From positions 333,111 through 397,110 of the forward strand of contig CATOSZ010000002.1 in assembly GCA_951812805.1 (NCBI GenBank): a stretch of 64,000 nucleotides of DNA, in the 5' to 3' direction. The number at the start of each line of letters is the position of its first letter. The first letter of the stretch is position 1. Below the pieces are notes generated by a model. That model was not told the DNA's origin. It worked only from the letters and a program-made list of their open reading frames with translations, and did not search any database. This DNA comes from an uncultured Alphaproteobacteria bacterium (GTDB taxonomy: Bacteria > Pseudomonadota > Alphaproteobacteria > GCA-2731375). A program made the position numbers and the translations under genes. Shown here in pieces: positions 9,952 through 61,310 of this stretch.

Positions 9952-12024
9952 ATGACCGACCACGCAGCGGACATCCTGCTCGGCATCGATGTCGGGGGCA
10001 CCTTCACGGACGTGGTCGCGCTCGATGCGGGCGCCGGGCGTATCGTCGGGACCTTCAAGCTGCCGTCGACGCCGGCAGATCCCTCGGCGGGCGCGCTCGC
10101 GGGCGCGGCGCGATTTCTCGCCCGCACCGGTCTCGCCGCCGGCGCCGTCCATCACGGCACCACGGTCTGCACCAATGCGCTGATCGAGAAGCGGGGCGCC
10201 CGCACCGCCTTGGTGACGACCGAGGGCTTTCGCGACGTGCTGGCGCTGCGCCGCCAGGCCCGGCCCCGGCTCTACGATCTCGCACCGGAAATTTCGCCGC
10301 CTCTGGTGCCGCGCGCGCGTCGCCTGGAGGTGGCGGAGCGGACGGCGCACGACGGCGAAACTCTCGTCCCCCTGCACAAGGCGGAAATCGAGCGCATCGT
10401 CGGCGAACTCCGCGCCTTGGACGTCGAGGCCGTGGCGATCAGCCTGCTGCATGCTTACGCCGACGATGGCCACGAACGGGCCCTGGAAGCGGCGATCGCC
10501 GAGGCCCTGCCGGACGTCTTCGTCTCGCGCGCCAGCGACGTGACGGCCGAGTTTCGCGAGTTCGAGCGGACCAGCACCGTCGCTGTCAACGCCTATATCG
10601 GCCCCAGGGCCGCGGCCTACCTCGGCCGTCTCGGCGACGCGCTGGCGGCCCGCGACATTCCCCGGCTGGCGATCGTCAAGTCGAACGGCGGCCTGACCTC
10701 GGCCGCGAACGCACGGCGCTATCCGGTCCACCTCATCGAATCCGGTCCGGCCGCCGGCGTCATCGCCAGCGCCGCGCTCGGCCGGACGGAGGGCTTCGGG
10801 GACCTGATCGCCTTCGACATGGGCGGGACGACCGCCAAGGTCGGGGTCATCCAGGACGGACGGCCGCGGCTGGCGCCCGAGTTCCTGGCCGACCGCCTGG
10901 TCGACGGGCGCGATGTCGGCGGCTATCCGATCAAGAGCCCGGTGATCGACCTCATCGAGATCGGCGCCGGTGGCGGTTCGATCGCCCGGCTCGACAGCCT
11001 GGGCGTCCTGAAGGTCGGCCCGGAAAGCGCCGGCGCGGATCCGGGCCCGGCCTGCTGGGGCCGGGGCGGCGGGGCGGCGACGGTGACGGATGCCCATGTC
11101 GTCCTCGGACATATCGCCGCCGACGGCTACGGCGCCGAGGACCTGAGCATCGACGCGGAGGCCGCGCGCCGGGTGATCGCCCAGACCGTCGCCGATCCGC
11201 TGGGCTGGCCCCTCGAGCGGGCGGCGGCCGGCATTCTAACCCTGGCCGACGCCAACATGGCGGAGATGGTGCGCCTGGCGACCCTGCGCCGGGGCCTGGA
11301 TCCGCGCGACTTCGCCTTGCTGGCGTTCGGCGGCGGCGGCGCCCTGCACGGCCCGGCGATCGCCCGCGAGGTCGGCGTGCCGCGGATCGTCGTGCCCCCC
11401 GTCCCGGGCCTGTTCAGCGCTGTCGGCACCCTCCTCGGCGACGTGCGCCACGACCTGGTGCAGACCGTGCTGACCCGGGCGCAGGGCGTCGATGCGGCAG
11501 CCCTGACGGCGGGCTTCGCCGGCCTGGAGGATCGCGCACACGCCCTGCTGGCGGCCGAGGCGACGGCGGGGGAAAGCCGGTTCGAGCGTCAGGCCGACCT
11601 CCGCTTCGAAGGCCAGATGTTCGAAAAGACCCTGCCGCTCGGCCCGGAAGACCGGGACGGCGAGGCCCTCGAGCGCCTGTTCCGCCAGGCCTATGTCGCC
11701 GAATACGGCTACGACCTCCCCGGTCAGCCGGTCGAGCTGGTCAACCTGCGCCTGGTCGCCGGCTGCCCCGCCGCCGTCGCCTGGCCCGCGCCGGCCGCGG
11801 GTGAAGTGTCCGGTCCCGGCCGGCGCCGCCGCGCGGTCGCGGGCGCCGACGGGATCCGGCGCGAGATCGAGGTCGTTCCCCGGGCGACGATCCGGCCCGG
11901 CGAGCACTTCGCGGGGCCGCTGCTGATCGAGGATTTCGGCGCCACCATCCGGGTGCTGGCCGGGCAGCGAGTCACGGCCGGCACCTCCGGCGTGCTGGTG
12001 ATCGAGGAGGAGGACGCGCGATGA
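9952..12024 (+). CDS. hyuA: Hydantoinase A family protein (second copy)
   Basis: MTDHAADILLGIDVGGTFTDVVALD..., 690 aa. Confidence 0.85.
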   Translation: MTDHAADILLGIDVGGTFTDVVALDAGAGRIVGTFKLPSTPADPSAGALAGAARFLARTGLAAGAVHHGTTVCTNALIEKRGARTALVTTEGFRDVLALRRQARPRLYDLAPEISPPLVPRARRLEVAERTAHDGETLVPLHKAEIERIVGELRALDVEAVAISLLHAYADDGHERALEAAIAEALPDVFVSRASDVTAEFREFERTSTVAVNAYIGPRAAAYLGRLGDALAARDIPRLAIVKSNGGLTSAANARRYPVHLIESGPAAGVIASAALGRTEGFGDLIAFDMGGTTAKVGVIQDGRPRLAPEFLADRLVDGRDVGGYPIKSPVIDLIEIGAGGGSIARLDSLGVLKVGPESAGADPGPACWGRGGGAATVTDAHVVLGHIAADGYGAEDLSIDAEAARRVIAQTVADPLGWPLERAAAGILTLADANMAEMVRLATLRRGLDPRDFALLAFGGGGALHGPAIAREVGVPRIVVPPVPGLFSAVGTLLGDVRHDLVQTVLTRAQGVDAAALTAGFAGLEDRAHALLAAEATAGESRFERQADLRFEGQMFEKTLPLGPEDRDGEALERLFRQAYVAEYGYDLPGQPVELVNLRLVAGCPAAVAWPAPAAGEVSGPGRRRRAVAGADGIRREIEVVPRATIRPGEHFAGPLLIEDFGATIRVLAGQRVTAGTSGVLVIEEEDAR

Positions 12025-13628
12025 ACGACGCCCCGCTGGAACTGGAAAGCGACGCCGTCACCTTCGAGGTCGTGCGCGGCGGCCTCGTCGCCATCTGCGA
12101 GGAAATGCGCACGGTGATGACCAGCGCCGCCTTCTCGCCGCTGTTGAGCCTGTCCTCCGACCTCTCCTGCGCGCTGCTGGACCAGTACGGCGACGTCGTC
12201 GCCCAGGGCAACGACATCCCGGTGCATCTCGGCGCCATGCCGTTCTCCGCCAAGGGGATGCTCGCCCGCTTTCCCCTGGACGAATGGCGGCCGGGCGACG
12301 CCGTGCTCGCCAACGATCCCTATTCCGGCGGCTCGCACCTCCCCGACATGACCTTGATGACGCCGATCTTCGACGATGCCGGCGTGCTCGGCTTCGCCGC
12401 GAGCCGGGTGCATTGGCCGGACATCGGCGGCGCCTCGCCCGGCTCCTCCGCCGTCACCGACGAGATCGTCAAGGAAGGCCTGCGCATTCCACCGGTCCGC
12501 GTCCTGCGCGCGGGCGTGATGGACGAGGGCGTCGCTACCCTGCTGTTCGCGAACGTGCGCGTGGCCGAGGATCGGCGGGGCGACTTCCAGGCGCAGATCG
12601 CTTGCAACCGGCGCGGCGTCGAGCGGGTCGAGGCCCTGGTCGCGCGTTACGGCGGCCCGGCGATACGACGCATCCTGGCCGAGACCCAGACCTACAGCGA
12701 GCGGCTGGTCGAGGCGGCGCTGGCGCGCATCGCCGACGGCACCTATGCCGCGCGCCAGCATCTCGACGGCGACGGCTATATCGAGGATCGGGGGGACGGG
12801 CCGCTCGTCCTCGCCGTCGCCGTCACCAAGCGGGGCCGCCGGCTGGAGATCGACTTCGCCGGCACCGGGCCACAGGCGCGCGGGCCGATCAACGCGCCGA
12901 TCTCGGTCACCGCGTCGGCCTGCTATTACCTGGCGCTAGCGCTCGGCGGCGGCGACGTGCCGCCGAATTCCGGTGCCTACCGGCCGGTATTGGTCCATGC
13001 GCCCGCGGGAAGCCTGGTCAACTGCGTGCACCCCGCGCCCGTCGTCTCCGGCAACACGGAGATGTCGAACCGTCTGGTCGACCTGATGTTCGAGGCGCTG
13101 GCGCCGGCCATGGCGGCGGGCGGCATCGGCGGCAGCTACGGCACCGCCGGGGTCTTTGCGCTGGGCGGTCACGACACGCACCGGGACCGCCGCTTTGTCC
13201 ACCTGGAGACGATCGGCGGCGGCATGGGGGCGAGCGCCGCCGGCCCCGGCCTCGACGGCCATCGCACCCACATGGGCAACACCATGAACCTGCCGATCGA
13301 GGCGAGCGAGGCCGCCATGCCCCTGCTGATCGAGCGCTACGAGCTGGTCGAGGACAGCGGCGGCACCGGCCGGCACCGGGGCGGCCTCGGCGTGCGCCGG
13401 GTGCTGCGTGCGCTCGACGACGGGATCAGCTTCTCGCTGCTGTTCGAACGTGCCCTGCATGCTGCCCACGGCGCCGCCGGCGGCGCGCCCGGGCGCACCG
13501 CGCGCTTCCATGTCGAACGGGCGGACGGGCGGATCGAACCGCTGTCCTCCAAGACCGAAGCGGGACGCCTGGAAGCCGGCGATCGCCTTTGGCTGGAGAC
13601 GGCGGGCGGCGGTGGCTGGGGGCGATAA
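12021..13628 (+). CDS. hyuB: Hydantoinase B family protein (second copy)
   Basis: MNDAPLELESDAVTFEVVRGGLVAICEEMRTVMTSAAFSP... ATGA overlap with the upstream hyuA. Confidence 0.85.
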   Translation: MNDAPLELESDAVTFEVVRGGLVAICEEMRTVMTSAAFSPLLSLSSDLSCALLDQYGDVVAQGNDIPVHLGAMPFSAKGMLARFPLDEWRPGDAVLANDPYSGGSHLPDMTLMTPIFDDAGVLGFAASRVHWPDIGGASPGSSAVTDEIVKEGLRIPPVRVLRAGVMDEGVATLLFANVRVAEDRRGDFQAQIACNRRGVERVEALVARYGGPAIRRILAETQTYSERLVEAALARIADGTYAARQHLDGDGYIEDRGDGPLVLAVAVTKRGRRLEIDFAGTGPQARGPINAPISVTASACYYLALALGGGDVPPNSGAYRPVLVHAPAGSLVNCVHPAPVVSGNTEMSNRLVDLMFEALAPAMAAGGIGGSYGTAGVFALGGHDTHRDRRFVHLETIGGGMGASAAGPGLDGHRTHMGNTMNLPIEASEAAMPLLIERYELVEDSGGTGRHRGGLGVRRVLRALDDGISFSLLFERALHAAHGAAGGAPGRTARFHVERADGRIEPLSSKTEAGRLEAGDRLWLETAGGGGWGR

Positions 13629-13676
13629 ATCTCAACTTTGGTCCCCACACCGCCCAACGACGGTGTGTCGGCCGGC

Positions 13677-14018
13677 TCAGGCCACGGCGCGGAGTTCGTC
13701 GATGACGCCCAGAACCTCGTCGGCGAGTGCCAGCATCGCCGACAGGGCAAGCCTGTTGCGGGTCGCATCGCGCACTCTATTCCTCAATTCGATCATATTC
13801 GCCTTGTCCTGGGACGTCGGCCGGTTTACGACGACGAGCCTGGCGTCGATCACAATAATCTCACGCTGAAATTCGCCCGCCCGGTCCGTCAAGCGAGTTC
13901 GCTTGCGTCGAAGGCTTCCACGGCGCGTTGGCGGCAACTCGAGCTCTTCAAGACGAATCTCCAGGGCCATCTGCAGTGCATTGTCTCGGGCGGCTTCCAA
14001 GTATTCCGTACGATTCAT
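13677..14018 (-). CDS. Hypothetical 113-aa helical basic protein, last gene of the lower-GC islet operon
   Basis: The ORF sits in a compositionally distinct (~55% GC) stretch. No signal peptide and no recognisable domain. Confidence 0.4.
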   Translation of the reverse strand: MNRTEYLEAARDNALQMALEIRLEELELPPTRRGSLRRKRTRLTDRAGEFQREIIVIDARLVVVNRPTSQDKANMIELRNRVRDATRNRLALSAMLALADEVLGVIDELRAVA

Positions 14019-14095
14019 TCTATGCTCCCAATTGATATGCCATGACGAAGAACATCGTTACTGGGCAATTCGGGCCAACCTGACACTCACATAAC

Positions 14096-14686
14096 CTACT
14101 TCGACGCGGCCGCCGTCAATAACGATGCATTTGCAGCAGCAGCAGCTTCCGAGTTCGATGCAGCCTTCACAATAGTGCCGCTCACATCCTTGGCGATTGC
14201 GAGGTAGAGCGCGGCCCGGTCTGCAAACTCCTTCTCGTCCTGTAACTTGCCAAGCGATTTACTGACAGCCGACAGCGACTTGAACGTTGTCGGGACGGCC
14301 GGGTAGTCGGCGAGAATCGTTTCGGGCAGGTAGGCATCGTATTCGCGCGCCTTGGAGAGATCCGGCTGTCCGGTCAAGATCTTTTCGACGTTCTCGATAA
14401 TCTCGTATGTTCGCACCTTGGCTACGAGACCGGAACGCCTCAACAGCTCCAGGTCCAATGCATTCAGATCATGATCTTGGATCCGCGCGCCCAACAAGCT
14501 TGCGCGCAGCCGCTCGGTACGCTCATCGGCGAGGACGATGGCGTTCCCGTCGCGCTTCAATCTGTCAACGATACTCTTGGTTTCCTTCGCCAGTTCGCCA
14601 GCGGCCCTATCACTGGCGCATCCGGAGACGATCCCGGCCAACAACATTCCGGAGATCAGCAACTTTGTGAAGTCAGTCCGTAGCAT
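14096..14686 (-). CDS. Hypothetical lipoprotein (196 aa)
   Basis: N-terminal signal peptide with lipobox LAGIVSG|C. Overlaps the upstream gene by 14 nt. Confidence 0.5.
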   Translation of the reverse strand: MLRTDFTKLLISGMLLAGIVSGCASDRAAGELAKETKSIVDRLKRDGNAIVLADERTERLRASLLGARIQDHDLNALDLELLRRSGLVAKVRTYEIIENVEKILTGQPDLSKAREYDAYLPETILADYPAVPTTFKSLSAVSKSLGKLQDEKEFADRAALYLAIAKDVSGTIVKAASNSEAAAAANASLLTAAASK

Positions 14687-15486
14687 TTAAAATTCCTCCA
14701 AGAACACCCAGATTGGCCAGACGACCCACCAGGGCGATGATTTCCTCGCGCTTCAACCCGGTCTTGTGAAATGCCGCCAAATCATCGATCGCACCACTCG
14801 CGAGCACCAAGGTCTCGCCCAGCGCACGTTCGCGCTCGATGCCGATTTCCACATGGTTGAGATGACCTTTCTCCCAGGGAACCCGGTCAATTCGCGCCTG
14901 GGCCGGCCCCAAGGCCAACCACGCATAGGCCAGCGCCCAATAAAGGTTCTGCTTTTGCTCGCCTTGAAGCATGGCTTCCAGATCTGCCGGCGTTGCGGCA
15001 CAGTCATTCTTCTCGCAAACCACTGGCTTCGTCTGGTTGATCTGAGCAATCAGCCAAGCCTGAAGCATTCGTGCATCCAGCGCCTCGAGCGCGAGGCTGC
15101 GCCGTGCCTCAATCAAACCGATCTGTTTTTCGAGGTACTGTCGTTCCAAGGCAAGAAAATCGCGAGTGACGAGCAGGTCGGCGGGAACCGGGTCCGCCAG
15201 CGCACTGGCCAAACCGGCAGTCTTGCCGACGATACCTTTGAATGACGCGAACAGGATACGGGCGCGCTGCAATTCTCCGGCGTCACCGGCGTCTCCGGCC
15301 TCGACGGCAGTGATCAGCGATTCCACAGCTGCAAGCCACGTGGCGTTCTCGCCGTTACCGATGCCGAGACCCGAAGCCGCCTCGTTGGCAGTGGACAGGA
15401 TCTCCTTCACTTTTGCGGACGCCTTGTCTACCGCCTCGTCGAATTTGGCCTGATCGAACGACGTGCCCTCGGCTTGGGCAATTTCC
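14673..15486 (-). pseudogene. 3' portion (C-terminal ~271 aa) of a large lipoprotein gene interrupted by IS1182-family copy 1
   Basis: The ORF 14673..15515 draws its first 29 nt (the MHARVRQAA start) from IS sequence. Its reading frame continues that of 17038..17900 across the IS. Confidence 0.5.
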
Positions 15487-17037
15487 CTAGCAGCCTGTCG
15501 GACTCGGGCATGCAAGGATTGGTAAGATTGGCTTGGCGGGCGTCGATGTCATGGATTTACCCCCATGAAGTTGCGAACGCGGGTTGGCCCGCCCGTTCAG
15601 GCGTGGCTGAGGACGAACATCCGCTTGATGTTCCAGGAGAGCGTGGCCAAGGTCCATTCCCCCTTCGCCTTGTCGAGGCCGCGCAGGCTGAACTGACGCA
15701 AGCCCATCACCGATTTGATGATGCCGAACACCGGCTCCGGCGTCTGCTTGCGAAGCGCGTAGAGCGCCCGGCCCTCGGGTGTGGCCAGGCGATGGCACAT
15801 CGCCTCGAGCGGCGTCGGATCCTCGGGCGCTGGCGGCGCCTCGGCGAAGCGGTCCCGCCAGGAAAGATGGTGGTGCTCCCGGCCGAGCGCGATCAGCGGC
15901 GCGATCTCCGCTTCCCCGCAGGCCTCGACGTTGGCCTGGCTGAAGTAGCCGCTGTCCGCCAACAGGGTCTCGACCTCGCCAAGCCCGTCCGGCAGGCCGG
16001 CGAGTGCTTCGAGCGTCGGTTCGATCTGCTGCTTGTCGTTCGCCGCCTGCACCACGTCGGCGCTGACCACCAGCAGGCTGCCGGCGGCCACCGCAGCCTG
16101 GGCGTTGTAGCACTGCTCGAAGCCGCCGCCGGCCACCGGCATGATGCGCGAGTCCGGGTCCGTCAGGTTGACCTGGTCCTTCGCCCGTGGCCCCGGCTCC
16201 GGCGGCTTCGGTGGCCGCCCGCCCGGCTTGCGGCCGGTCCGCGTTTCCTTCGCCTCGCGGGCTGCCAGCTTCTCTTCGTACTCCGCCTGCTCCCGCGCAT
16301 GACGCTCGGCCGCCCGCGCCTCGATCTCCGCCTTCGCCGCGGCGATCGCCGCCAGCCGGTCCTCGCGCCGTGCCAGCTCCTCCGGCACGCTCATGCCGTC
16401 GGGAACCTCGGACCGGTCCGCCGCTTCCGCCAACGCCATCAACTCCGCCACCTCGGCCCGCAGCCGGGCTTCGATCTCGCCCGCACGCTGCCACGACAGG
16501 GCGCTGTGCCGGCTCGCGTCGGCATGGATCTTCGTCCCGTCCAGCGCCACCGTGCCCAGTTGCAGCATGCCGGCCTGCCGCGCCAGCAGCAGAACCTGCA
16601 CGAACAGCCCCTCGATCAGCGGCAGGAAGCGACGGCGGAACGTGGCGATCGTGTCGTGGTCGGGGTGGTCGTTTGCCGCGATGAAGCGGAAGGCCACCGA
16701 ATCATAGCTCGCCCGCTCCAGCTTCCGGCTGGAATGCACCCCCGTCGCGTAGCCGTAGATCAGCAGGCCCAGCAGGACGCTCGGGTGATGCGCCGCCGAG
16801 CCCGAACCACGATAGGCCTTCACGAACGCAGAGAGATCCAGCTGCTCCAGCACATCGACCACGAAGCGCGCCAGATGACGATCAGGCAGCCATTCGTCCA
16901 CCGAAGGCGGCAGAAGATAGCTGGTCTCCCGGTCAACCTGTCGAAAGTTGCTCATCACAAAATCACCGCGCAGGAGAGAATCAGACCGTGACAGTGAATC
17001 TCATCTCGAAACTCGGCTCAAGTCCGACAGGCTGCTA
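15487..17037 (-). mobile_element. IS1182-family insertion sequence, copy 1 (~1551 bp, transposase on minus strand)
   Basis: Identical to 59759..61310 in inverted orientation. Terminal inverted repeats CTAGCAGCCTGTCGGAC. CTAG at both junctions. Confidence 0.8.
15597..16958 (-). CDS. IS1182-family (DDE) transposase, 453 aa
   Basis: MMSNFRQVDRETSYLLPPSVDEWLPDRHLARFVVDVLEQLDLSAF... is the typical IS1182/IS5-superfamily N-terminus. It is 100% identical to ORF 59839..61200. Confidence 0.85.
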   Translation of the reverse strand: MMSNFRQVDRETSYLLPPSVDEWLPDRHLARFVVDVLEQLDLSAFVKAYRGSGSAAHHPSVLLGLLIYGYATGVHSSRKLERASYDSVAFRFIAANDHPDHDTIATFRRRFLPLIEGLFVQVLLLARQAGMLQLGTVALDGTKIHADASRHSALSWQRAGEIEARLRAEVAELMALAEAADRSEVPDGMSVPEELARREDRLAAIAAAKAEIEARAAERHAREQAEYEEKLAAREAKETRTGRKPGGRPPKPPEPGPRAKDQVNLTDPDSRIMPVAGGGFEQCYNAQAAVAAGSLLVVSADVVQAANDKQQIEPTLEALAGLPDGLGEVETLLADSGYFSQANVEACGEAEIAPLIALGREHHHLSWRDRFAEAPPAPEDPTPLEAMCHRLATPEGRALYALRKQTPEPVFGIIKSVMGLRQFSLRGLDKAKGEWTLATLSWNIKRMFVLSHA

Positions 17038-17900
17038 GAGAGGCGTTTAAGCTGCGTGGCGACCTCAGCCGCCGCAGCTTTGGCCGATACGACTTCGTCG
17101 TTCAGCCGCCACAAATCACAGAGCGCGGCCACGATCTCACCCAATCCGGTCGCCCTAGCCTTGCACGCGGTATCGCGGCGCATCGGGTTCCCGCCAGAAG
17201 ACGTCGTCAGCATCGCGTCGACGAAAACATCGAAATTTCTCGTCTGCAGACTGCACCCTTTCACGAGAGACTTCAGGCTTGTCCTGACCCTTACGCGTTG
17301 TTTTTCTGGCACGCTGCCAATCAAGGAGTTCTGGAGTTCGTCCCGCGCCGCATCGCTACGCAAGTGCCGAAAATCTTCGCAGGTCGGCGTACGGCCCCTT
17401 AGAATCGGCCGCAGATCCTCGAATGGTTTGTGCGCCGCAACTGCAAAAATCAACCGTGCCGATGCGATCGCCTTCGATAGCATCCTGACCTGCCCGACCC
17501 GAGAAATGCCCAGCTCGCTCAGGCGCGTTCGTAGAACGTCAAAGCTTCCGTGGCCCAGCACGGAACAGAGTTCATTTCCACGCGCGGTTGTCGAATCCTT
17601 GTAAAGATTGAAGAGTCCGCAGTCCGTTCTGGCCTCGCCGACCAAGGAAACGAAACTGTCCTTACCGCTGAGCAAGGCGATCTTGTCGACGGTATCCAGC
17701 TCGCTCTGCCGGAGTCGGCCCAAGCGTTCGCGTCTCGTCGCGGCGAAGACATCCAAGTCAACTTTCGCCAGTTCCGTCTTTGCCTTCGTGGCTTCTTCGT
17801 CCTTGGCCGCATCATACAGGATCGTGGATCCGCAGCCGGCCGTGAAAATCGTCAGCGCCATGCAGAACGCCAAGTTAAGTCTTCGCATCAGAACCCCCAC
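17038..17900 (-). pseudogene. 5' portion (N-terminal ~287 aa, with signal peptide and lipobox) of the IS-interrupted lipoprotein gene
   Basis: MGVLMRRLNLAFCMALTIFTAG|C lipobox. The ORF stop at 17001 lies inside the IS, so the last ~12 codons are IS-derived. Confidence 0.5.
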
Positions 17901-18103
17901 ATTTTATCAATTCCGCTATATAGATCAAGCCCTAGATAACACTCAACTACTCAATCCTAGCCGTTTGTTCCGTGATTGCAACCAAAATTATCCTATGTCG
18001 AAATCGAGATCTCGCTGCGGGTTGGACGCCGGTTCCGTGAATTCGGTGTTCCGTGGTGTCATGCGTGATATCGTTCATCGATCACGCGGGAGACGGCATC
18101 CTC

Positions 18104-19345
18104 ATGAACTCCACAACGCAGCTGTTCGACGAGCTCGATCCCGCCCCCCGGCTGTTGATGGGGCCGGGGCCGGTCGATGTCTACCCCCGGGTGTTGCGGG
18201 CGATGTCGACGCCGATGCTGGGGCAGTTCGACCCCCAGTTCACCGGCTACATGAACGAGGTCATGGCGCTCTACCGCCAGGTCTTTCGCACGGAGAACCA
18301 CTGGGCCCTGCTGGTCAACGGTACGGCGCGCGCGGGGATCGAGGCCTGCCTCGCCTCCCTAATCGCGCCGGGCGACAAGGTGCTGGTGCCGATCTTCGGC
18401 CGCTTCGGCCATCTGCTGACCGAGATCGCCGCGCGTTTCGGCGCCGAGGTGATCACGCTGGAGACCGAGTGGGGCGGCGTGTTCGAGGCGGACCGGATCG
18501 CCGACGCCGTTCGGACCCACACGCCGAGCCTGGTCGCCCTGGTGCATGGCGATACCTCGACGACCATGGCCCAGCCGCTCGACGAGATCGGCCGCATTTG
18601 CCGCGCGGCGGGCGTGCTGCTCTACGTCGACGCGACGGCGACGCTCGGCGGCAATCCGTTGGAGGTCGACGCCTGGCATATCGACGCGGTCAGTGCCGGC
18701 CTGCAAAAATGCCTCTCCGGCCCCCCCGGTTCGGCACCCGTGACCTTCAACGAACGTGTGGTCGAGCGGATTTCGAGCCGCAAGCACATCGAGGCGGGGA
18801 TCCGGCCCGAGGGCTATACCGCCGGCCCGGGGCCCAGGATTGCGTCCAACTATTTCGACCTGCCGATGCTGATGGACTATTGGAGCCCGGCACGCCTCAA
18901 CCACCACACCGAGGCCACGACCATGCTCTACGCGGCCCGGGAATGCGCCCGTATCGTCCTCGCCGAGGGGCTGGAGCACGGCTTCGCCCGCCACCGCCTG
19001 GCGAGCCGGGCGCTGCGGGCGGGGCTGGAGGCCATGGGACTGGAGCTGTTCGGCGACGCCGCACACCGTATGGCGAACGTCACCGGTGTGGTCATCCCCG
19101 CAGGCGTGGCCGGCGACAAGGCCAGGGGCGAACTTCTGGAGGATTTCGGCATCGAGATCGGCACCTCTTTCGGGCCGCTGCACGGCAAGATCTGGCGCCT
19201 GGGAACGATGGGCCATGTCTGCCGCAAGGCGAACATCCTGCGCTGCCTGAGCGCGTTGGACGCGGTGCTGCGGCGAAACGGCTTCGAGGCGCCGGTCAAC
19301 GCCGGCGTCGATGCCGCCTACGCCATCTATGATGGGGAGGGCTGA
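18104..19345 (+). CDS. Class V aminotransferase (serine-glyoxylate / alanine-glyoxylate aminotransferase-like)
   Basis: [34 protein letters not shown]... is the AGXT-family N-terminus. Confidence 0.8.
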
Positions 19346-19349
19346 CGAC

Positions 19350-20195
19350 ATGAGCCAGATGAACCCGCTTTGCATGCACGAGGACCCGGCCTCGGTCGCG
19401 ACGGGCGCGGCGGCCCGGCGCCTGTTCCGCGATCCAGCCTCGCCCGCCTTCCTGCAAACGACGGGCATGGCGCCCGGCTTCATGCAGGCGAGCCCGATCA
19501 TCCTGCCGGCCGAGCTGGCGCTGGACTTCGCCACCTTCTGCCAGCGCAATCCCAAGCCCTGCCCGCTGGTCGGCACCGGCAATCGGGGCGAGCCCACGAT
19601 CCCGACCCTGGGCCACGATCTCGACCTCCGCACCGACCTCGGCGGCTACCGGATCTGGCGCCATGGCGAGCTGGTGGACGAGGTCACCGACATCAGCGAT
19701 CTCTGGCGCGACGACTTCGTCGCCTTCGCCGTCGGCTGCTCCTATTCCTTCGAGGCGGCGCTGATGGCGGACGGGATCGAGCTGCGCCACATCACCCAGG
19801 ACGTCTGCGTGCCGATGTACATGACGGATATCCCGTTGCATCCCGCCGGCCCGTTCCGCGGCCACATGTGCGTGACCATGCGCCCCTTCGCACCGGCCGA
19901 CGCGATCCGCGCGATCGAGATCACCAGCCGCTTTCCGTTGACCCACGGCACCCCGGTGCATATCGGCGACCCCGCTCAGATCGGCATCGACGACCTGGCG
20001 ACGCCGCTGGTCGGCGATCCGGTCGAGGTCCGCAATGCCGAGATCTGCGTCTTCTGGGGCTGCGGCATCACCCCGCAATACGCCATGCTGCAGGCCCGCC
20101 CGGAAATCGCCATCACCCACAAGCCCGGCTGCCTGCTGGTAACCGACGTTCCCAGCCGGGCCGATGCGCTGGCCCTGCCCGGCCTCGCCGCCTGA
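19350..20195 (+). CDS. DUF1445/UPF0317 putative hydro-lyase (D-glutamate cyclase-like)
   Basis: [28 protein letters not shown]...[17 protein letters not shown]... Begins 5 nt after the aminotransferase stop. Confidence 0.65.
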
Positions 20196-57023: not shown

Positions 57024-58254
57024 CCGGCAAGGCGCAGGGGAATCGCATTTGGAATTGCCTTGACGTGCGTGTTTGATCTTGAGGTATTGGCGCGAATCGA
57101 TTCTACCCGGTCTTTTCACGGGTGGAGGTTGCGATGGAAGGCTTTCTGGAGTGCTTTGAGGGTCTCGAGGATCCGCGGACTGGCAATGCCGGGCGTCACG
57201 ATCTGCTGGAGATCTTGACGATCGCCCTGTGCACGGTCCTCTCGGGCGGTCAGACGGCGGTCGACATGGCGATCTTCGCGCGTGAAAAGGAGGCGTTCCT
57301 GCGGGAATTTCTCGTACTCGAACATGGCGTGCCGAGCCACGACACCTTCAGCCGGGTGTTCCGGTTGCTGGATCCGGAGGCGTTCGGCGCCTGCTTCCAG
57401 CGCTTCATGGCGCGCTTTTCCGAGACCTGCCAAGGGGTCATTGCGATCGACGGCAAGGTGGTGCGGCGATCCTACGACAAGGCGAGCGGCACGTCGGCGC
57501 TGCATATGGTCTCGGCCTGGGGCTGTGATCAGCGGCTGGTGTTGGGGCAAGTCGCCACCGACGCCAAGTCCAACGAGATCACCGCCGTGCCGAAGCTGTT
57601 GAAACTATTGAGCCTCGAGGGGACGATCGTGACCGTGGACGCCCTCAATTGCCAGCGCGCCATCGCCAGCCAGATTATCGAGCAGGGGGGTGACTACGCC
57701 CTGGCGTTGAAGGGCAATCAAGGCACGCTGCATGACGACGTGAGAACCTTCCTCGACGATCCGAAAGCCGAAGCGACCACCACCGACACCACGGTCGATG
57801 GCGATCATGGCCGCATCGAGACCCGTGCCGCTCTCGTCTCCAGCCACGTCGAGTGGCTGCAAGAGCGCCATCATTGGCCGGGCCTGAAGGCGGTCGCCAA
57901 AGTCACCCGGACCCGCGAGTGCGCGGAGAAGACGTCGAGCGAAACCGCCTACTACCTGCTCAGCCAGCCGCTCGACGCCGAGCGCTTCAATCCCGTTGCC
58001 CGGGCGCACTGGGGGGTCGAAAACCGCCTGCACTGGTGCCTCGATGTCCAAATGAACGAAGACCAAGACAGAACCCGCAAGGACAATGGACCGCACAATC
58101 TCGCCGTCCTGCGCCACATGGCGCTCAATGTCATGCGAAAGGATCCACGAAAAGACTCGCTGCGCGCCAAGTTCAAAATCGCCGCTTGGAACAACGACTA
58201 TCTCCTGTCACTCCTCGGCAAATTCTGAAATGCGATTGCCCTGCGGCAAGGCGG
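57024..58254 (+). mobile_element. ISAs1-family insertion sequence (~1.23 kb)
   Basis: Imperfect ~27-bp terminal inverted repeats (CCGGCAAGGCGCAGGGGAATCGCATTT ... AAATGCGATTGCCCTGCGGCAAGGCGG) flank an ISAs1 transposase gene. Boundaries are approximate. Confidence 0.5.
57122..58228 (+). CDS. ISAs1-family transposase (H-repeat associated protein-like), 368 aa
   Basis: ...FLECFEGLEDPRTGNAGRHDLLEILTIALCTVLSGGQTAVDMAIFAR... and the DDE region ...TVDALNCQRAIASQIIEQGGDYALALKGNQ... are diagnostic of ISAs1 transposases. Confidence 0.85.
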   Translation: MEVAMEGFLECFEGLEDPRTGNAGRHDLLEILTIALCTVLSGGQTAVDMAIFAREKEAFLREFLVLEHGVPSHDTFSRVFRLLDPEAFGACFQRFMARFSETCQGVIAIDGKVVRRSYDKASGTSALHMVSAWGCDQRLVLGQVATDAKSNEITAVPKLLKLLSLEGTIVTVDALNCQRAIASQIIEQGGDYALALKGNQGTLHDDVRTFLDDPKAEATTTDTTVDGDHGRIETRAALVSSHVEWLQERHHWPGLKAVAKVTRTRECAEKTSSETAYYLLSQPLDAERFNPVARAHWGVENRLHWCLDVQMNEDQDRTRKDNGPHNLAVLRHMALNVMRKDPRKDSLRAKFKIAAWNNDYLLSLLGKF

Positions 58255-58286
58255 AATCGGTCGGACGATCAGGCGGGAGATACCCG

Positions 58287-59762
58287 ATGTTTGGGTTCAA
58301 GGGCGTGTGGCCATTGGCAATTTTGGCGATGTTCGCCTGGGACGTCGCGGCGGCGGAACAGGTTCCGCAGGATCTGGCGTCCCTGGCCGCGCGGCTTTAC
58401 CGGCTGTCGGGCGACGAGCTCGCCAAAGCCGGCGACGATGTCGAGAGCCACGCGGCGGCTCGGCTGGCCGGCGGCGCCATCCGGCGCGCCGGCGTGGGCT
58501 ATTGGGCCCGCGACAACGTGACGGTCGAAGGCGCCGGCGCCCGGGCAGCGAAGCTGTTGGGGCTCGACCTCGGCAAGCCCGGACACCGCGCCGAGCTCGC
58601 CCGATTGCTCAATCTATCGAGTGGCGAGCTGCGAGAGGCTTTGTCGGCGCGCCGACCGGAACTCGACGCGGCGTCGCTCGATGACCTGGCCAACAGCCTC
58701 GCCGCCACCCGCACGCCTGCGGACTTGGAAACCCGTCACACGATCGATCTTGGAGACGGCGAGACGGTGGAAATTTCCTGGGACACGGAGAGCGGAGAGG
58801 TTCTGGTTCGCGCGCGTTCGGATGGGACCGGCGAGACGCCGGCCTACGACGTCTCCCTGCTGGGCGGCGCGGAACTGCAAGTGGAACCCGATAGCGGGGA
58901 TCTACGCACAGCGCTGCGCAGCAACCCGGAAGAGGCGGTCCGCGTGCTTTCGGCCAGTGATCTCGAGCATTTACGCGGTTCCATTCTCGGCGATTGGCGG
59001 GCGGCAAACGGCGATGTCTATACGATTGGCGCCGGCGACGATGCGGCCGGTGACATCACGATCGCCGCGCAAGATTACAGCCAGCTGATCGAGGATGCCC
59101 AAGCGCAGCTCGAGACGCTCGAGCAGGCTATCGAGTATGTCTGGGAAAATTCGCAAACAGGCGGTATTCGCCGCCAGGAACGCTTTCGCCGGCTCGAAGA
59201 CCCATGGATCTACAAGGGCGAGGAGCAGCTCGGCGCGGCGGACATTGCACGTCTGGAGCAGCGAATAGCGGAACTCGAGGCGAAGCAGGCGGGCGCGGGC
59301 CTGCCACCGGTTCTCCGCCATGACCCGGTTGGACATGGCGAAAACCGCCAGGCGAATGGCGCGCGCGCCATTAGAATCGCGGTGCGCCGGTCCGACGGCT
59401 ACGGGTATTCCTATGATGATGCTTCCTTCAACGGCAGGACCGTCACGGCGCGGCGCACATACCGCGATGTCCGCGATATCGACCGGGATTTGCCGGAAAC
59501 GATAAAACAGCAGCTTATCGCCTCGTGGGCGCCGCCAAGCTGGCTGGAGCTGCAAGCGAGCTTCGATCCCACAACGGGGGAGGTACGAATGGTCGGCAAG
59601 AGATGGTTCTTGCACGTCACTTACGGCGGCGGTGGATTCTTCGGCGATGGCGCGGCGAAAGTTAAGAACCTGAATACGCCGTACGCCCGCCCTCTCAATC
59701 TTGGTAAGGACGGCGTGCGGACCCGCGTCGCCATGGGTGCCGCGGCCGATGCCGTTCCCTAG
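58287..59762 (+). CDS. Secreted acidic hypothetical protein (491 aa). Its stop codon lies in the CTAG junction of IS1182-family copy 2
   Basis: MFGFKGVWPLAILAMFAWDVAAA signal peptide. GGGAGA RBS. It ends ...AADAVP-TAG, where the TAG is part of the CTAG at the IS boundary. Confidence 0.5.
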   Translation: MFGFKGVWPLAILAMFAWDVAAAEQVPQDLASLAARLYRLSGDELAKAGDDVESHAAARLAGGAIRRAGVGYWARDNVTVEGAGARAAKLLGLDLGKPGHRAELARLLNLSSGELREALSARRPELDAASLDDLANSLAATRTPADLETRHTIDLGDGETVEISWDTESGEVLVRARSDGTGETPAYDVSLLGGAELQVEPDSGDLRTALRSNPEEAVRVLSASDLEHLRGSILGDWRAANGDVYTIGAGDDAAGDITIAAQDYSQLIEDAQAQLETLEQAIEYVWENSQTGGIRRQERFRRLEDPWIYKGEEQLGAADIARLEQRIAELEAKQAGAGLPPVLRHDPVGHGENRQANGARAIRIAVRRSDGYGYSYDDASFNGRTVTARRTYRDVRDIDRDLPETIKQQLIASWAPPSWLELQASFDPTTGEVRMVGKRWFLHVTYGGGGFFGDGAAKVKNLNTPYARPLNLGKDGVRTRVAMGAAADAVP

Positions 59763-61310
59763 CAGCCTGTCGGACTTGAGCCGAGTTTCGAGATGAGATT
59801 CACTGTCACGGTCTGATTCTCTCCTGCGCGGTGATTTTGTGATGAGCAACTTTCGACAGGTTGACCGGGAGACCAGCTATCTTCTGCCGCCTTCGGTGGA
59901 CGAATGGCTGCCTGATCGTCATCTGGCGCGCTTCGTGGTCGATGTGCTGGAGCAGCTGGATCTCTCTGCGTTCGTGAAGGCCTATCGTGGTTCGGGCTCG
60001 GCGGCGCATCACCCGAGCGTCCTGCTGGGCCTGCTGATCTACGGCTACGCGACGGGGGTGCATTCCAGCCGGAAGCTGGAGCGGGCGAGCTATGATTCGG
60101 TGGCCTTCCGCTTCATCGCGGCAAACGACCACCCCGACCACGACACGATCGCCACGTTCCGCCGTCGCTTCCTGCCGCTGATCGAGGGGCTGTTCGTGCA
60201 GGTTCTGCTGCTGGCGCGGCAGGCCGGCATGCTGCAACTGGGCACGGTGGCGCTGGACGGGACGAAGATCCATGCCGACGCGAGCCGGCACAGCGCCCTG
60301 TCGTGGCAGCGTGCGGGCGAGATCGAAGCCCGGCTGCGGGCCGAGGTGGCGGAGTTGATGGCGTTGGCGGAAGCGGCGGACCGGTCCGAGGTTCCCGACG
60401 GCATGAGCGTGCCGGAGGAGCTGGCACGGCGCGAGGACCGGCTGGCGGCGATCGCCGCGGCGAAGGCGGAGATCGAGGCGCGGGCGGCCGAGCGTCATGC
60501 GCGGGAGCAGGCGGAGTACGAAGAGAAGCTGGCAGCCCGCGAGGCGAAGGAAACGCGGACCGGCCGCAAGCCGGGCGGGCGGCCACCGAAGCCGCCGGAG
60601 CCGGGGCCACGGGCGAAGGACCAGGTCAACCTGACGGACCCGGACTCGCGCATCATGCCGGTGGCCGGCGGCGGCTTCGAGCAGTGCTACAACGCCCAGG
60701 CTGCGGTGGCCGCCGGCAGCCTGCTGGTGGTCAGCGCCGACGTGGTGCAGGCGGCGAACGACAAGCAGCAGATCGAACCGACGCTCGAAGCACTCGCCGG
60801 CCTGCCGGACGGGCTTGGCGAGGTCGAGACCCTGTTGGCGGACAGCGGCTACTTCAGCCAGGCCAACGTCGAGGCCTGCGGGGAAGCGGAGATCGCGCCG
60901 CTGATCGCGCTCGGCCGGGAGCACCACCATCTTTCCTGGCGGGACCGCTTCGCCGAGGCGCCGCCAGCGCCCGAGGATCCGACGCCGCTCGAGGCGATGT
61001 GCCATCGCCTGGCCACACCCGAGGGCCGGGCGCTCTACGCGCTTCGCAAGCAGACGCCGGAGCCGGTGTTCGGCATCATCAAATCGGTGATGGGCTTGCG
61101 TCAGTTCAGCCTGCGCGGCCTCGACAAGGCGAAGGGGGAATGGACCTTGGCCACGCTCTCCTGGAACATCAAGCGGATGTTCGTCCTCAGCCACGCCTGA
61201 ACGGGCGGGCCAACCCGCGTTCGCAACTTCATGGGGGTAAATCCATGACATCGACGCCCGCCAAGCCAATCTTACCAATCCTTGCATGCCCGAGTCCGAC
61301 AGGCTGCTAG
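59759..61310 (+). mobile_element. IS1182-family insertion sequence, copy 2 (~1552 bp), inverted relative to copy 1
   Basis: Same terminal inverted repeats (CTAGCAGCCTGTCGGAC...). Identical transposase and identical antisense ORFs. CTAG at both junctions. Confidence 0.8.
59839..61200 (+). CDS. IS1182-family transposase (identical to 15597..16958)
   Basis: 453 aa, 100% identical in sequence to the copy-1 transposase. Confidence 0.85.
   Translation: MMSNFRQVDRETSYLLPPSVDEWLPDRHLARFVVDVLEQLDLSAFVKAYRGSGSAAHHPSVLLGLLIYGYATGVHSSRKLERASYDSVAFRFIAANDHPDHDTIATFRRRFLPLIEGLFVQVLLLARQAGMLQLGTVALDGTKIHADASRHSALSWQRAGEIEARLRAEVAELMALAEAADRSEVPDGMSVPEELARREDRLAAIAAAKAEIEARAAERHAREQAEYEEKLAAREAKETRTGRKPGGRPPKPPEPGPRAKDQVNLTDPDSRIMPVAGGGFEQCYNAQAAVAAGSLLVVSADVVQAANDKQQIEPTLEALAGLPDGLGEVETLLADSGYFSQANVEACGEAEIAPLIALGREHHHLSWRDRFAEAPPAPEDPTPLEAMCHRLATPEGRALYALRKQTPEPVFGIIKSVMGLRQFSLRGLDKAKGEWTLATLSWNIKRMFVLSHA

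Follow-up and report, generated by a model that had tools for sequence, protein, structure and literature searches.

An IS1182-family element splits the first gene of a foreign three-gene lipoprotein cassette in an uncultured alphaproteobacterium

Insertion sequences (IS) of the IS1182 family, for example those of the ISAzo1 group, are elements of about 1.5 kb that carry a single DDE transposase and inverted repeats, duplicate a short target and knock out genes. Proteins with part of the features described below are known from other settings: the unimolecular spanins (e.g. gp11 of phage T1) combine in one polypeptide a lipoprotein signal at the N-terminus and a hydrophobic segment at the C-terminus, the ClyA-superfamily toxins (XaxAB, PaxAB, AhlABC) are long helical-bundle proteins encoded in operons of several genes, and the BAR-domain proteins of membrane curvature are also counted among the closest known systems. 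In this work, we have analysed a stretch of 64,000 nucleotides from the genome of an uncultured Alphaproteobacteria bacterium (GCA-2731375 lineage; contig CATOSZ010000002.1 of assembly GCA_951812805.1, positions 333,111 to 397,110 of the forward strand), which we call the window, and in it a lower-GC islet with three genes, A, B and C, the first of which is interrupted by an IS1182-family element. The best overall explanation, to which we assign a probability of roughly 0.85, is that a foreign three-gene operon has had its gene A knocked out by this element. The features of the islet are the following:

13629..18052, no strand assigned: lower-GC islet, consisting of the three-gene cassette plus the IS (GC and GC3 contrast with the neighbours)
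17035..17888, minus strand: gene A (g1), N-terminal portion from ATG 17888 on, with the signal peptide MRRLNLAFCMALTIFTAGC and the lipobox Cys
14673..15490, minus strand: gene A (g1), C-terminal portion, covering residues ~291-555 of rejoined protein A, with the left CTAG at its end
14096..14686, minus strand: gene B (g2), a 196-aa predicted lipoprotein with lipobox IVSGC and Cys23 (ORF list, homologue profile)
13677..14018, minus strand: gene C (g3), 113 aa, helical, no signal peptide (ORF list; homologues directly after B)
15491..17034, minus strand: IS1182-family insertion sequence, 1544 bp (inverted repeats, identity to a second copy)
15597..16958, minus strand: IS1182-family DDE transposase, 453 aa (NF033551, Pfam)
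15487..15490, no strand assigned: left copy of the target-site duplication, CTAG (the frame returns only with one CTAG left in place)
17035..17038, no strand assigned: right copy of the target-site duplication, CTAG (flank comparison, excision)

To reconstruct gene A we compared four in-silico excisions: the IS plus one CTAG, the IS alone, the IS plus both CTAGs, and the 1551-bp interval 15487-17037 given in the initial annotation of this DNA. Excision of 15491-17038 (the IS plus one CTAG; 1548 bp, or 3 x 516) leaves a single open reading frame (ORF) with no internal stop, in which the restored junction reads ...QLKRLS-REIAQAEG... and which from ATG 17888 encodes a protein A of 555 aa. When the IS alone (1544 bp) or the IS with both CTAGs (1552 bp) is removed, the result is a frameshift with multiple stops. 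The empty site would read ...CAATTTCC-CTAG-AGAGGCG.... The ORF comes back only when one CTAG is left, and for this reason the 4-bp CTAG is a true target-site duplication that lies outside the IS. The initial annotation had expected the frame to be continuous once about 1551 bp were removed; its interval does join the halves in frame, but it drops one extra codon, an Arg, and its borders carry a 3-nt error, the right CTAG lying at 17035-17038 and not at 17034-17037 and the proper excision being 1548 bp. It had also assigned to the IS the first 29 nt of ORF 14673..15515, of which the element encodes 25, including the TTG start, and the CTAG duplication supplies the remaining 4. The rest of its description of the split agrees with ours: the four minus-strand ORFs lie where it had placed them (17001..17900, 14673..15515, 14096..14686 and 13677..14018), the stop of ORF 17001..17900 is derived from the IS, neither the frameshift nor the stop that it had told its readers to look for at the junction is present in the excised sequence, and relatives have one gene that spans the junction, where separate genes for the halves would by its own terms have spoken against the split.

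The relatives of protein A are few. A word-indexed search of 5.8 billion proteins returned no match for A, and an exhaustive HMMER scan of 1.84 billion cluster representatives recovered both halves of A (public records P0002 and P0003), three full-length relatives and some 20 weaker matches, 450-600 aa long. The three full-length relatives are P0004 (567 aa, 46% identity, covering residues 10-557 of A), P0005 (586 aa, 37% identity) and P0006 (556 aa, 33% identity). The family is rare, being found in clusters of one to three members that are all called 'hypothetical protein' where they are named. In a 24-sequence alignment of the family (A1) the junction is free of gaps against the nearest homologues (QLKRLSREIAQAEG versus RLKALAKEIADAKG; over a longer stretch, KRLSREIAQAEG versus KALAKEIADAKG, again with no gap). 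One candidate was rejected: P0008, a protein of 2694 aa with an insect-allergen repeat, reached an E-value of 1.7e-21 through 14 repeated weak matches, and as a repeat-inflated false positive it was unfit for the family seed.

Could the two ORFs be naturally separate genes, with the IS merely lying between them? Both halves do stand as separate protein records, P0002 (286 aa, with an IS-derived tail) and P0003 (280 aa, with IS-encoded first residues). However, the last residues of P0002 (SSLSDLSRVSR) and the first of P0003 (MHARVRQAA) come from the two ends of the IS, the 1548-bp excision joins the halves in frame, and 23 homologues of ~450-600 aa cover both halves colinearly with a gap-free junction, so that this explanation is effectively refuted. 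The two-protein public annotation is an artefact of the insertion, and P0002 and P0003 should be merged into one pseudogene. As to the true beginning of gene A, it is likely ATG 17888 (MRRLNLAFCMALTIFTAGC) and not GTG 17900, because the former gives a canonical signal peptide. The start of P0002 falls at an internal Met (MALTIFTAGC...), which leaves nearly no n-region to the signal peptide; ATG 17888 (MRRLNLAFC...) suits the homologues better.

The IS1182-family element transposed into a CTAG within gene A, at codon 291/292 counted from ATG 17888, duplicating this CTAG, and the insertion cut the gene into two ORFs with IS-derived ends. Split in this way, gene A is a pseudogene, and in the source genome the cassette very probably no longer functions. 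The transposase and the operon share the same orientation; at the split locus genes B and C may be silenced by polarity or else driven by read-through from the IS.

The assignment of the element to the IS1182 family, made in the initial annotation, is confirmed by the score of its transposase against the NCBIfam model NF033551 (transpos_IS1182), 356.5 bits with a cutoff of 270 bits; the IS5 models score the same protein below their own cutoffs, and Pfam finds in it DDE_Tnp_1_6, DUF772 and DDE_Tnp_1. With one ORF of 453 aa in 1544 bp, the element is compact and has the layout of an IS1182 member. Its terminal inverted repeats (15491-15509 and 17016-17034) begin with a perfect CAGCCTGTCGGACT and match at 17 of 19 positions. 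The window holds a second copy:

59763..61306, plus strand: second IS copy, inverted and identical (0 mismatches over 1544 bp)

The inverted-repeat 14-mer pair recurs at the ends of this copy, at 59763 and 61306, and its CTAGs lie at 59759-62 and 61307-10. Thus CTAG stands on both sides of both copies, and beyond it the sequences of the two copies differ. The 100% identity of the second copy dates the insertion in gene A as recent, and the host-like composition of the element, together with the two identical copies, suggests that it is resident and active in the host genome. The nearest plasmid-borne relatives, among them an element of the ISAzo1 family, are 70-75% identical at the nucleotide level, and because they come no closer the IS appears to be a new element and not a named one; the naming threshold of ISfinder is about 95% identity. 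It thus shares with the IS1182 family its single DDE transposase, its size, its inverted repeats, its short duplication and the knockout of a gene, and is set apart by this distance and by the presence of both copies in CTAG. A preference for CTAG/YTAR targets is that of IS5 proper, and a literature search on a CTAG target of the IS1182 family returned nothing relevant. Two identical inverted copies ~42.7 kb apart could mediate the inversion of the segment between them. As the halves of gene A are colinear, there has been no net inversion since the insertion.

The operon that received the IS differs in composition from its surroundings. The islet is bounded by the stop of hyuB and the start of an aminotransferase gene:

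12021-13628: Hydantoinase_B gene, hyuB (Pfam)
18053-19345: class-V aminotransferase gene, Aminotran_5 (Pfam)

Along the window the GC content drops from ~70% to 54-60% across the islet. The lower GC that the initial annotation had seen here is real, as the islet minus the IS has 57.7% GC against 67.1% for the window. At third codon positions (GC3) genes A, B and C have 68%, 71% and 70%, whereas hyuA, hyuB, the aminotransferase and the transposase have 88-90%. Because the GC3 of the three genes is low relative to the flanks and GC3 is largely independent of amino-acid composition, the ~2.9 kb of the islet are foreign DNA, acquired horizontally and relatively recently. At its borders no tRNA, Rfam match, integrase or flanking direct repeat was found, and its DNA has no plasmid match.

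The initial annotation implied that the three genes are specific to this genome. This proved wrong, since they form a conserved three-gene cassette: the order A-B-C was found in ~27 distinct metagenomic loci, with no exception as far as the contigs extend. A metagenome scan with the 'GVNK' subclade added 25 loci, in which B and C were read by profile search and blastp; a metagenome scan with the close-clade alignment (A4) gave nothing. Across the ~27 loci A has ~510-590 aa, B ~180-210 aa and C ~113-200 aa with no signal peptide, the values on the contigs of A homologues that were looked up being 518-586, 181-203 and 113-157 aa respectively. In the homologous loci the start of B overlaps or abuts the stop of A; in the window, the overlap is 14 nt, and this overlap, like the lipoboxes of g1 and g2, had been correctly reported before. 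In the word-indexed search B was a singleton cluster holding the query only, and the B profile finds B after A at all loci.

The genes around the cassette are unrelated from one locus to the next, as seen in the following flanks:

L081 (the locus of P0004): GMC oxidoreductase, DctP
L084: ArdA, ParB_N, DUF736, Crp-like regulator, cyclase-TPR protein, PAP2, S8 peptidase
L088: hem biosynthesis genes, YcaO, CpXC
L091: Endonuclease_NS
L093: faint patatin match (precomputed annotation only), Amidase_3
L104: 1217-aa S8 subtilase

ArdA, ParB_N and DUF736, found together at L084, are typical of integrative conjugative elements (ICEs), a further locus has an AlpA-family gene beside the cassette, and S8 subtilases lie upstream of the cassette at two unrelated loci. 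At L098 (4573-8337) and L100 (4600-8364) a protein of 405 aa begins with the C-type domain and also has a zincin (Matrixin/Astacin-like) domain, and directly after this fusion comes an 841-aa caspase-like (Peptidase_C14) protein. PADLOC, when run on the neighbours at the other loci, gave a caspase model (1.7e-11), a marginal PycC (9.6e-4) and nothing else. In four of six other loci the GC of the cassette is below that of its flanks. With its constant order, its unrelated flanks and this lower GC as grounds, the A-B-C triad behaves like a self-contained, horizontally mobile unit. On the same strand after C, one or two small multi-transmembrane (multi-TM) proteins are encoded at L090 (3681-4076), L091 (5640-6203) and L104 (10575-12096). 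In some distant cassettes such proteins may be a fourth component, which is absent from the clade of the window.

Both A and B are predicted to be exported and lipid-anchored. The signal peptide of A ends in ...IFTAGC, with a Cys that is invariant in 24/24 family members and is followed by the conserved motif LY.E.RDK.A..AK; the lipobox Cys of B is invariant in 18/18 homologues and precedes an ELA.ET motif. Neither protein has Asp at position +2, and by the sorting rule of E. coli both are probably directed to the outer membrane. Protein A of the window has 10 Cys, and in the family Cys174 is near-invariant and Cys216 invariant, which suggests that the conserved ones form periplasmic disulphides. 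Its C-terminus is conserved as GIK.E.I..L...LG.I.G(VNK), and the last 18 residues are glycine-rich and non-amphipathic (Eisenberg mean hydrophobicity 0.59, moment 0.17). In most members, the signal peptide apart, no segment is more hydrophobic than this tail, and A may be anchored at both ends of its chain. An AlphaFold2 model of A, built from the 24-sequence alignment, is all-helical, with a pLDDT (predicted local distance difference test) of 74 and a pTM (predicted template modelling score) of 0.66, and is of low confidence at residues 318-387 and in the tail. Protein B is predicted to be helical, and its single-sequence model (pLDDT 50) was unusable. Protein C has a pI of 10.1 in this lineage; its basic character is not conserved, the L081 homologue having an acidic loop, and an invariant Pro stands within a (R/P)P(S/T/D) turn.

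The initial annotation could name no family for the three proteins, and our searches lead to the same point. A, B and C have no match in Pfam, NCBIfam, PADLOC or PHROGs, no member of the A family matches Pfam, and profile searches of the three proteins against the PDB gave coiled-coil noise only. In PADLOC-DB v2 the best E-values were 0.016-0.02 for A and B, with none for C, which does not amount to a match to a defence system. Foldseek found nothing in the PDB at E below 0.1 for the model of A, and a fold search of the same model against BFVD also found nothing. In hhalign comparisons, A and B are unrelated beyond the signal peptide, and A and C are unrelated.

What could be the role of such a cassette? 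A and B would be made in a coupled fashion from their overlapping genes, would be lipid-anchored in the envelope and would probably form a helical complex there, and C would act on the cytoplasmic side as an adaptor, a chaperone or a regulator. Judged from context, the single most likely role is that of a horizontally spreading accessory module for genetic conflict or envelope defence, and not housekeeping; we put it forward tentatively, on the grounds that the cassette is patchy, mobile, low in GC and self-contained, is at times accompanied by ICE genes or proteases, and in one lineage has a C-zincin fusion beside a caspase-like protein. The S8 subtilases, the faint patatin match and Endonuclease_NS also count as neighbours of a conflict type. 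The case is weakened by the want of a conserved neighbour and by the negative PADLOC result. A more specific version, that A-B-C is a previously undescribed envelope-anchored conflict system in which a doubly anchored A and its partner B would detect or stop an incoming phage, conjugative DNA or the toxin of a competitor at the envelope and C would couple them to effectors, is doubtful. An accessory role outside conflict, in which the cassette would maintain the envelope or shape its membranes as a BAR-like scaffold of helical lipoproteins on the periplasmic face, e.g. to protect against stress or to form vesicles and tubules, we regard as unlikely.

Two further possibilities draw on the architecture of A. 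The three co-transcribed, all-helical proteins and the glycine-rich hydrophobic segment of A could make up an alpha-helical membrane-active or pore-forming complex like XaxAB and AhlABC, with A and B inserting in the membrane and C as a cytoplasmic chaperone or immunity factor; the 50 best Foldseek matches to the model of A repeatedly include XaxA, XaxB, PaxB and AhlB, although these are non-significant. The toxins resemble the cassette as multi-gene operons of long helical-bundle proteins and in these weak recurrent matches, but A and B are lipoproteins of other sizes and domain layout with no sequence similarity to them, and neither in fold nor in sequence was there a significant resemblance to the tail-and-head architecture of the ClyA superfamily. 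This reading is improbable. A remnant of a phage lysis or spanin cassette, with A bridging both membranes like a unimolecular spanin, is far less probable again. In its favour, A has the topology that one would look for, with a lipobox at the N-terminus and a hydrophobic segment at the C-terminus that may tether it at either end; two loci encode small multi-TM proteins after C, and two have amidases nearby. Unlike the unimolecular spanins, which are four times smaller, A is an all-helical, cysteine-rich protein of ~555 aa that is always found with B and C and is not present in phage collections: 50,697 phage genomes, IMG/VR, BFVD and PHROGs gave no matches. The islet in the window contains no holin, endolysin or other phage gene, its flanks are a hydantoinase and an aminotransferase, and the absence of phage relatives also sets it apart from a phage spanin or lysis cassette.

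Several points weigh against an insertion-disrupted foreign operon with a role in conflict or defence. The searched genomes, a set that lacks near relatives of the source genome, hold no close-relative allele free of the IS, and the empty site is deduced from homologues of at most 46% identity. The loci read in the final synteny analysis had in part supplied the sequences for its B and C profiles. The cassette family is absent from 72,556 plasmids (tblastn with three family members), from the 50,697 phage genomes (tblastn with reconstituted A) and from IMG/VR contigs, and this speaks against classic carriage by plasmids or phages. The flanks in the window itself are plain metabolic genes, and the protease and mobile-element neighbours seen elsewhere vary by locus, with none conserved. 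PADLOC, PHROGs, Pfam, NCBIfam and the PDB support no function, and the lipoprotein status, the outer-membrane sorting, the disulphides and the insertion of the tail are all predictions from the sequence.

The event itself is routine genome decay, an active IS disabling an accessory gene. For annotation it means that two 'hypothetical proteins', P0002 and P0003, become one pseudogene, and that the borders and the target site of the IS are defined. The three genes are not orphans; they belong to a rare operon of strictly conserved order that occurs in unrelated genomic contexts and is unnamed in the databases. The cassette thus offers a clean case for experiments on what may be a new accessory system of the envelope, and L081 (2143-4814), L084 (8001-10701) and L088 carry intact copies of it.

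Upstream of gene A lies a region that the initial annotation had called AT-rich and promoter-like:

17889..18052, minus strand: AT-rich upstream region with one sigma-70-like match, TTGATC-16-TAAAAT, at 17928..17901 (consensus match only)

The first part of this description holds, with 44.7% GC at 17901-18052; the second finds little support in a single match to the sigma-70 consensus. A GGAAC-N18-AGTT at 17950-17979 (minus strand, ~83 nt upstream of ATG 17888) resembles an alphaproteobacterial extracytoplasmic function (ECF)/EcfG-type promoter with a spacing that is off by 1-2 nt. It has no counterpart upstream of the homologous cassettes, and no shared upstream motif of the ECF or sigma-54 type was found across the homologous loci.

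Away from the cassette, ORF 58086..59762, for which Pfam gives no match, stops at the TAG within the left CTAG of the second IS copy. The best match to the aminotransferase in a scan of genome contigs has 78% identity and lies in metagenome-assembled genomes of Kiloniellaceae and Rhodospirillales. None of 80 retrieved aminotransferase loci (at most 78% identity) has hyuB synteny or carries islet genes; the adjacency of hyuB and the aminotransferase is itself absent from all 80 of these distant relatives. On the hyuB side the flanking genes are Hydantoinase_A and Hydantoinase_B (window 9952-13628; Pfam), and on the other side the start of a D-glutamate cyclase gene overlaps the end of the aminotransferase gene. 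Taken together, the hydantoinases, the aminotransferase and the D-glutamate cyclase (9952-13628 and 18053-20195) are plausibly a small metabolic cluster, and the islet has apparently been inserted between its members.

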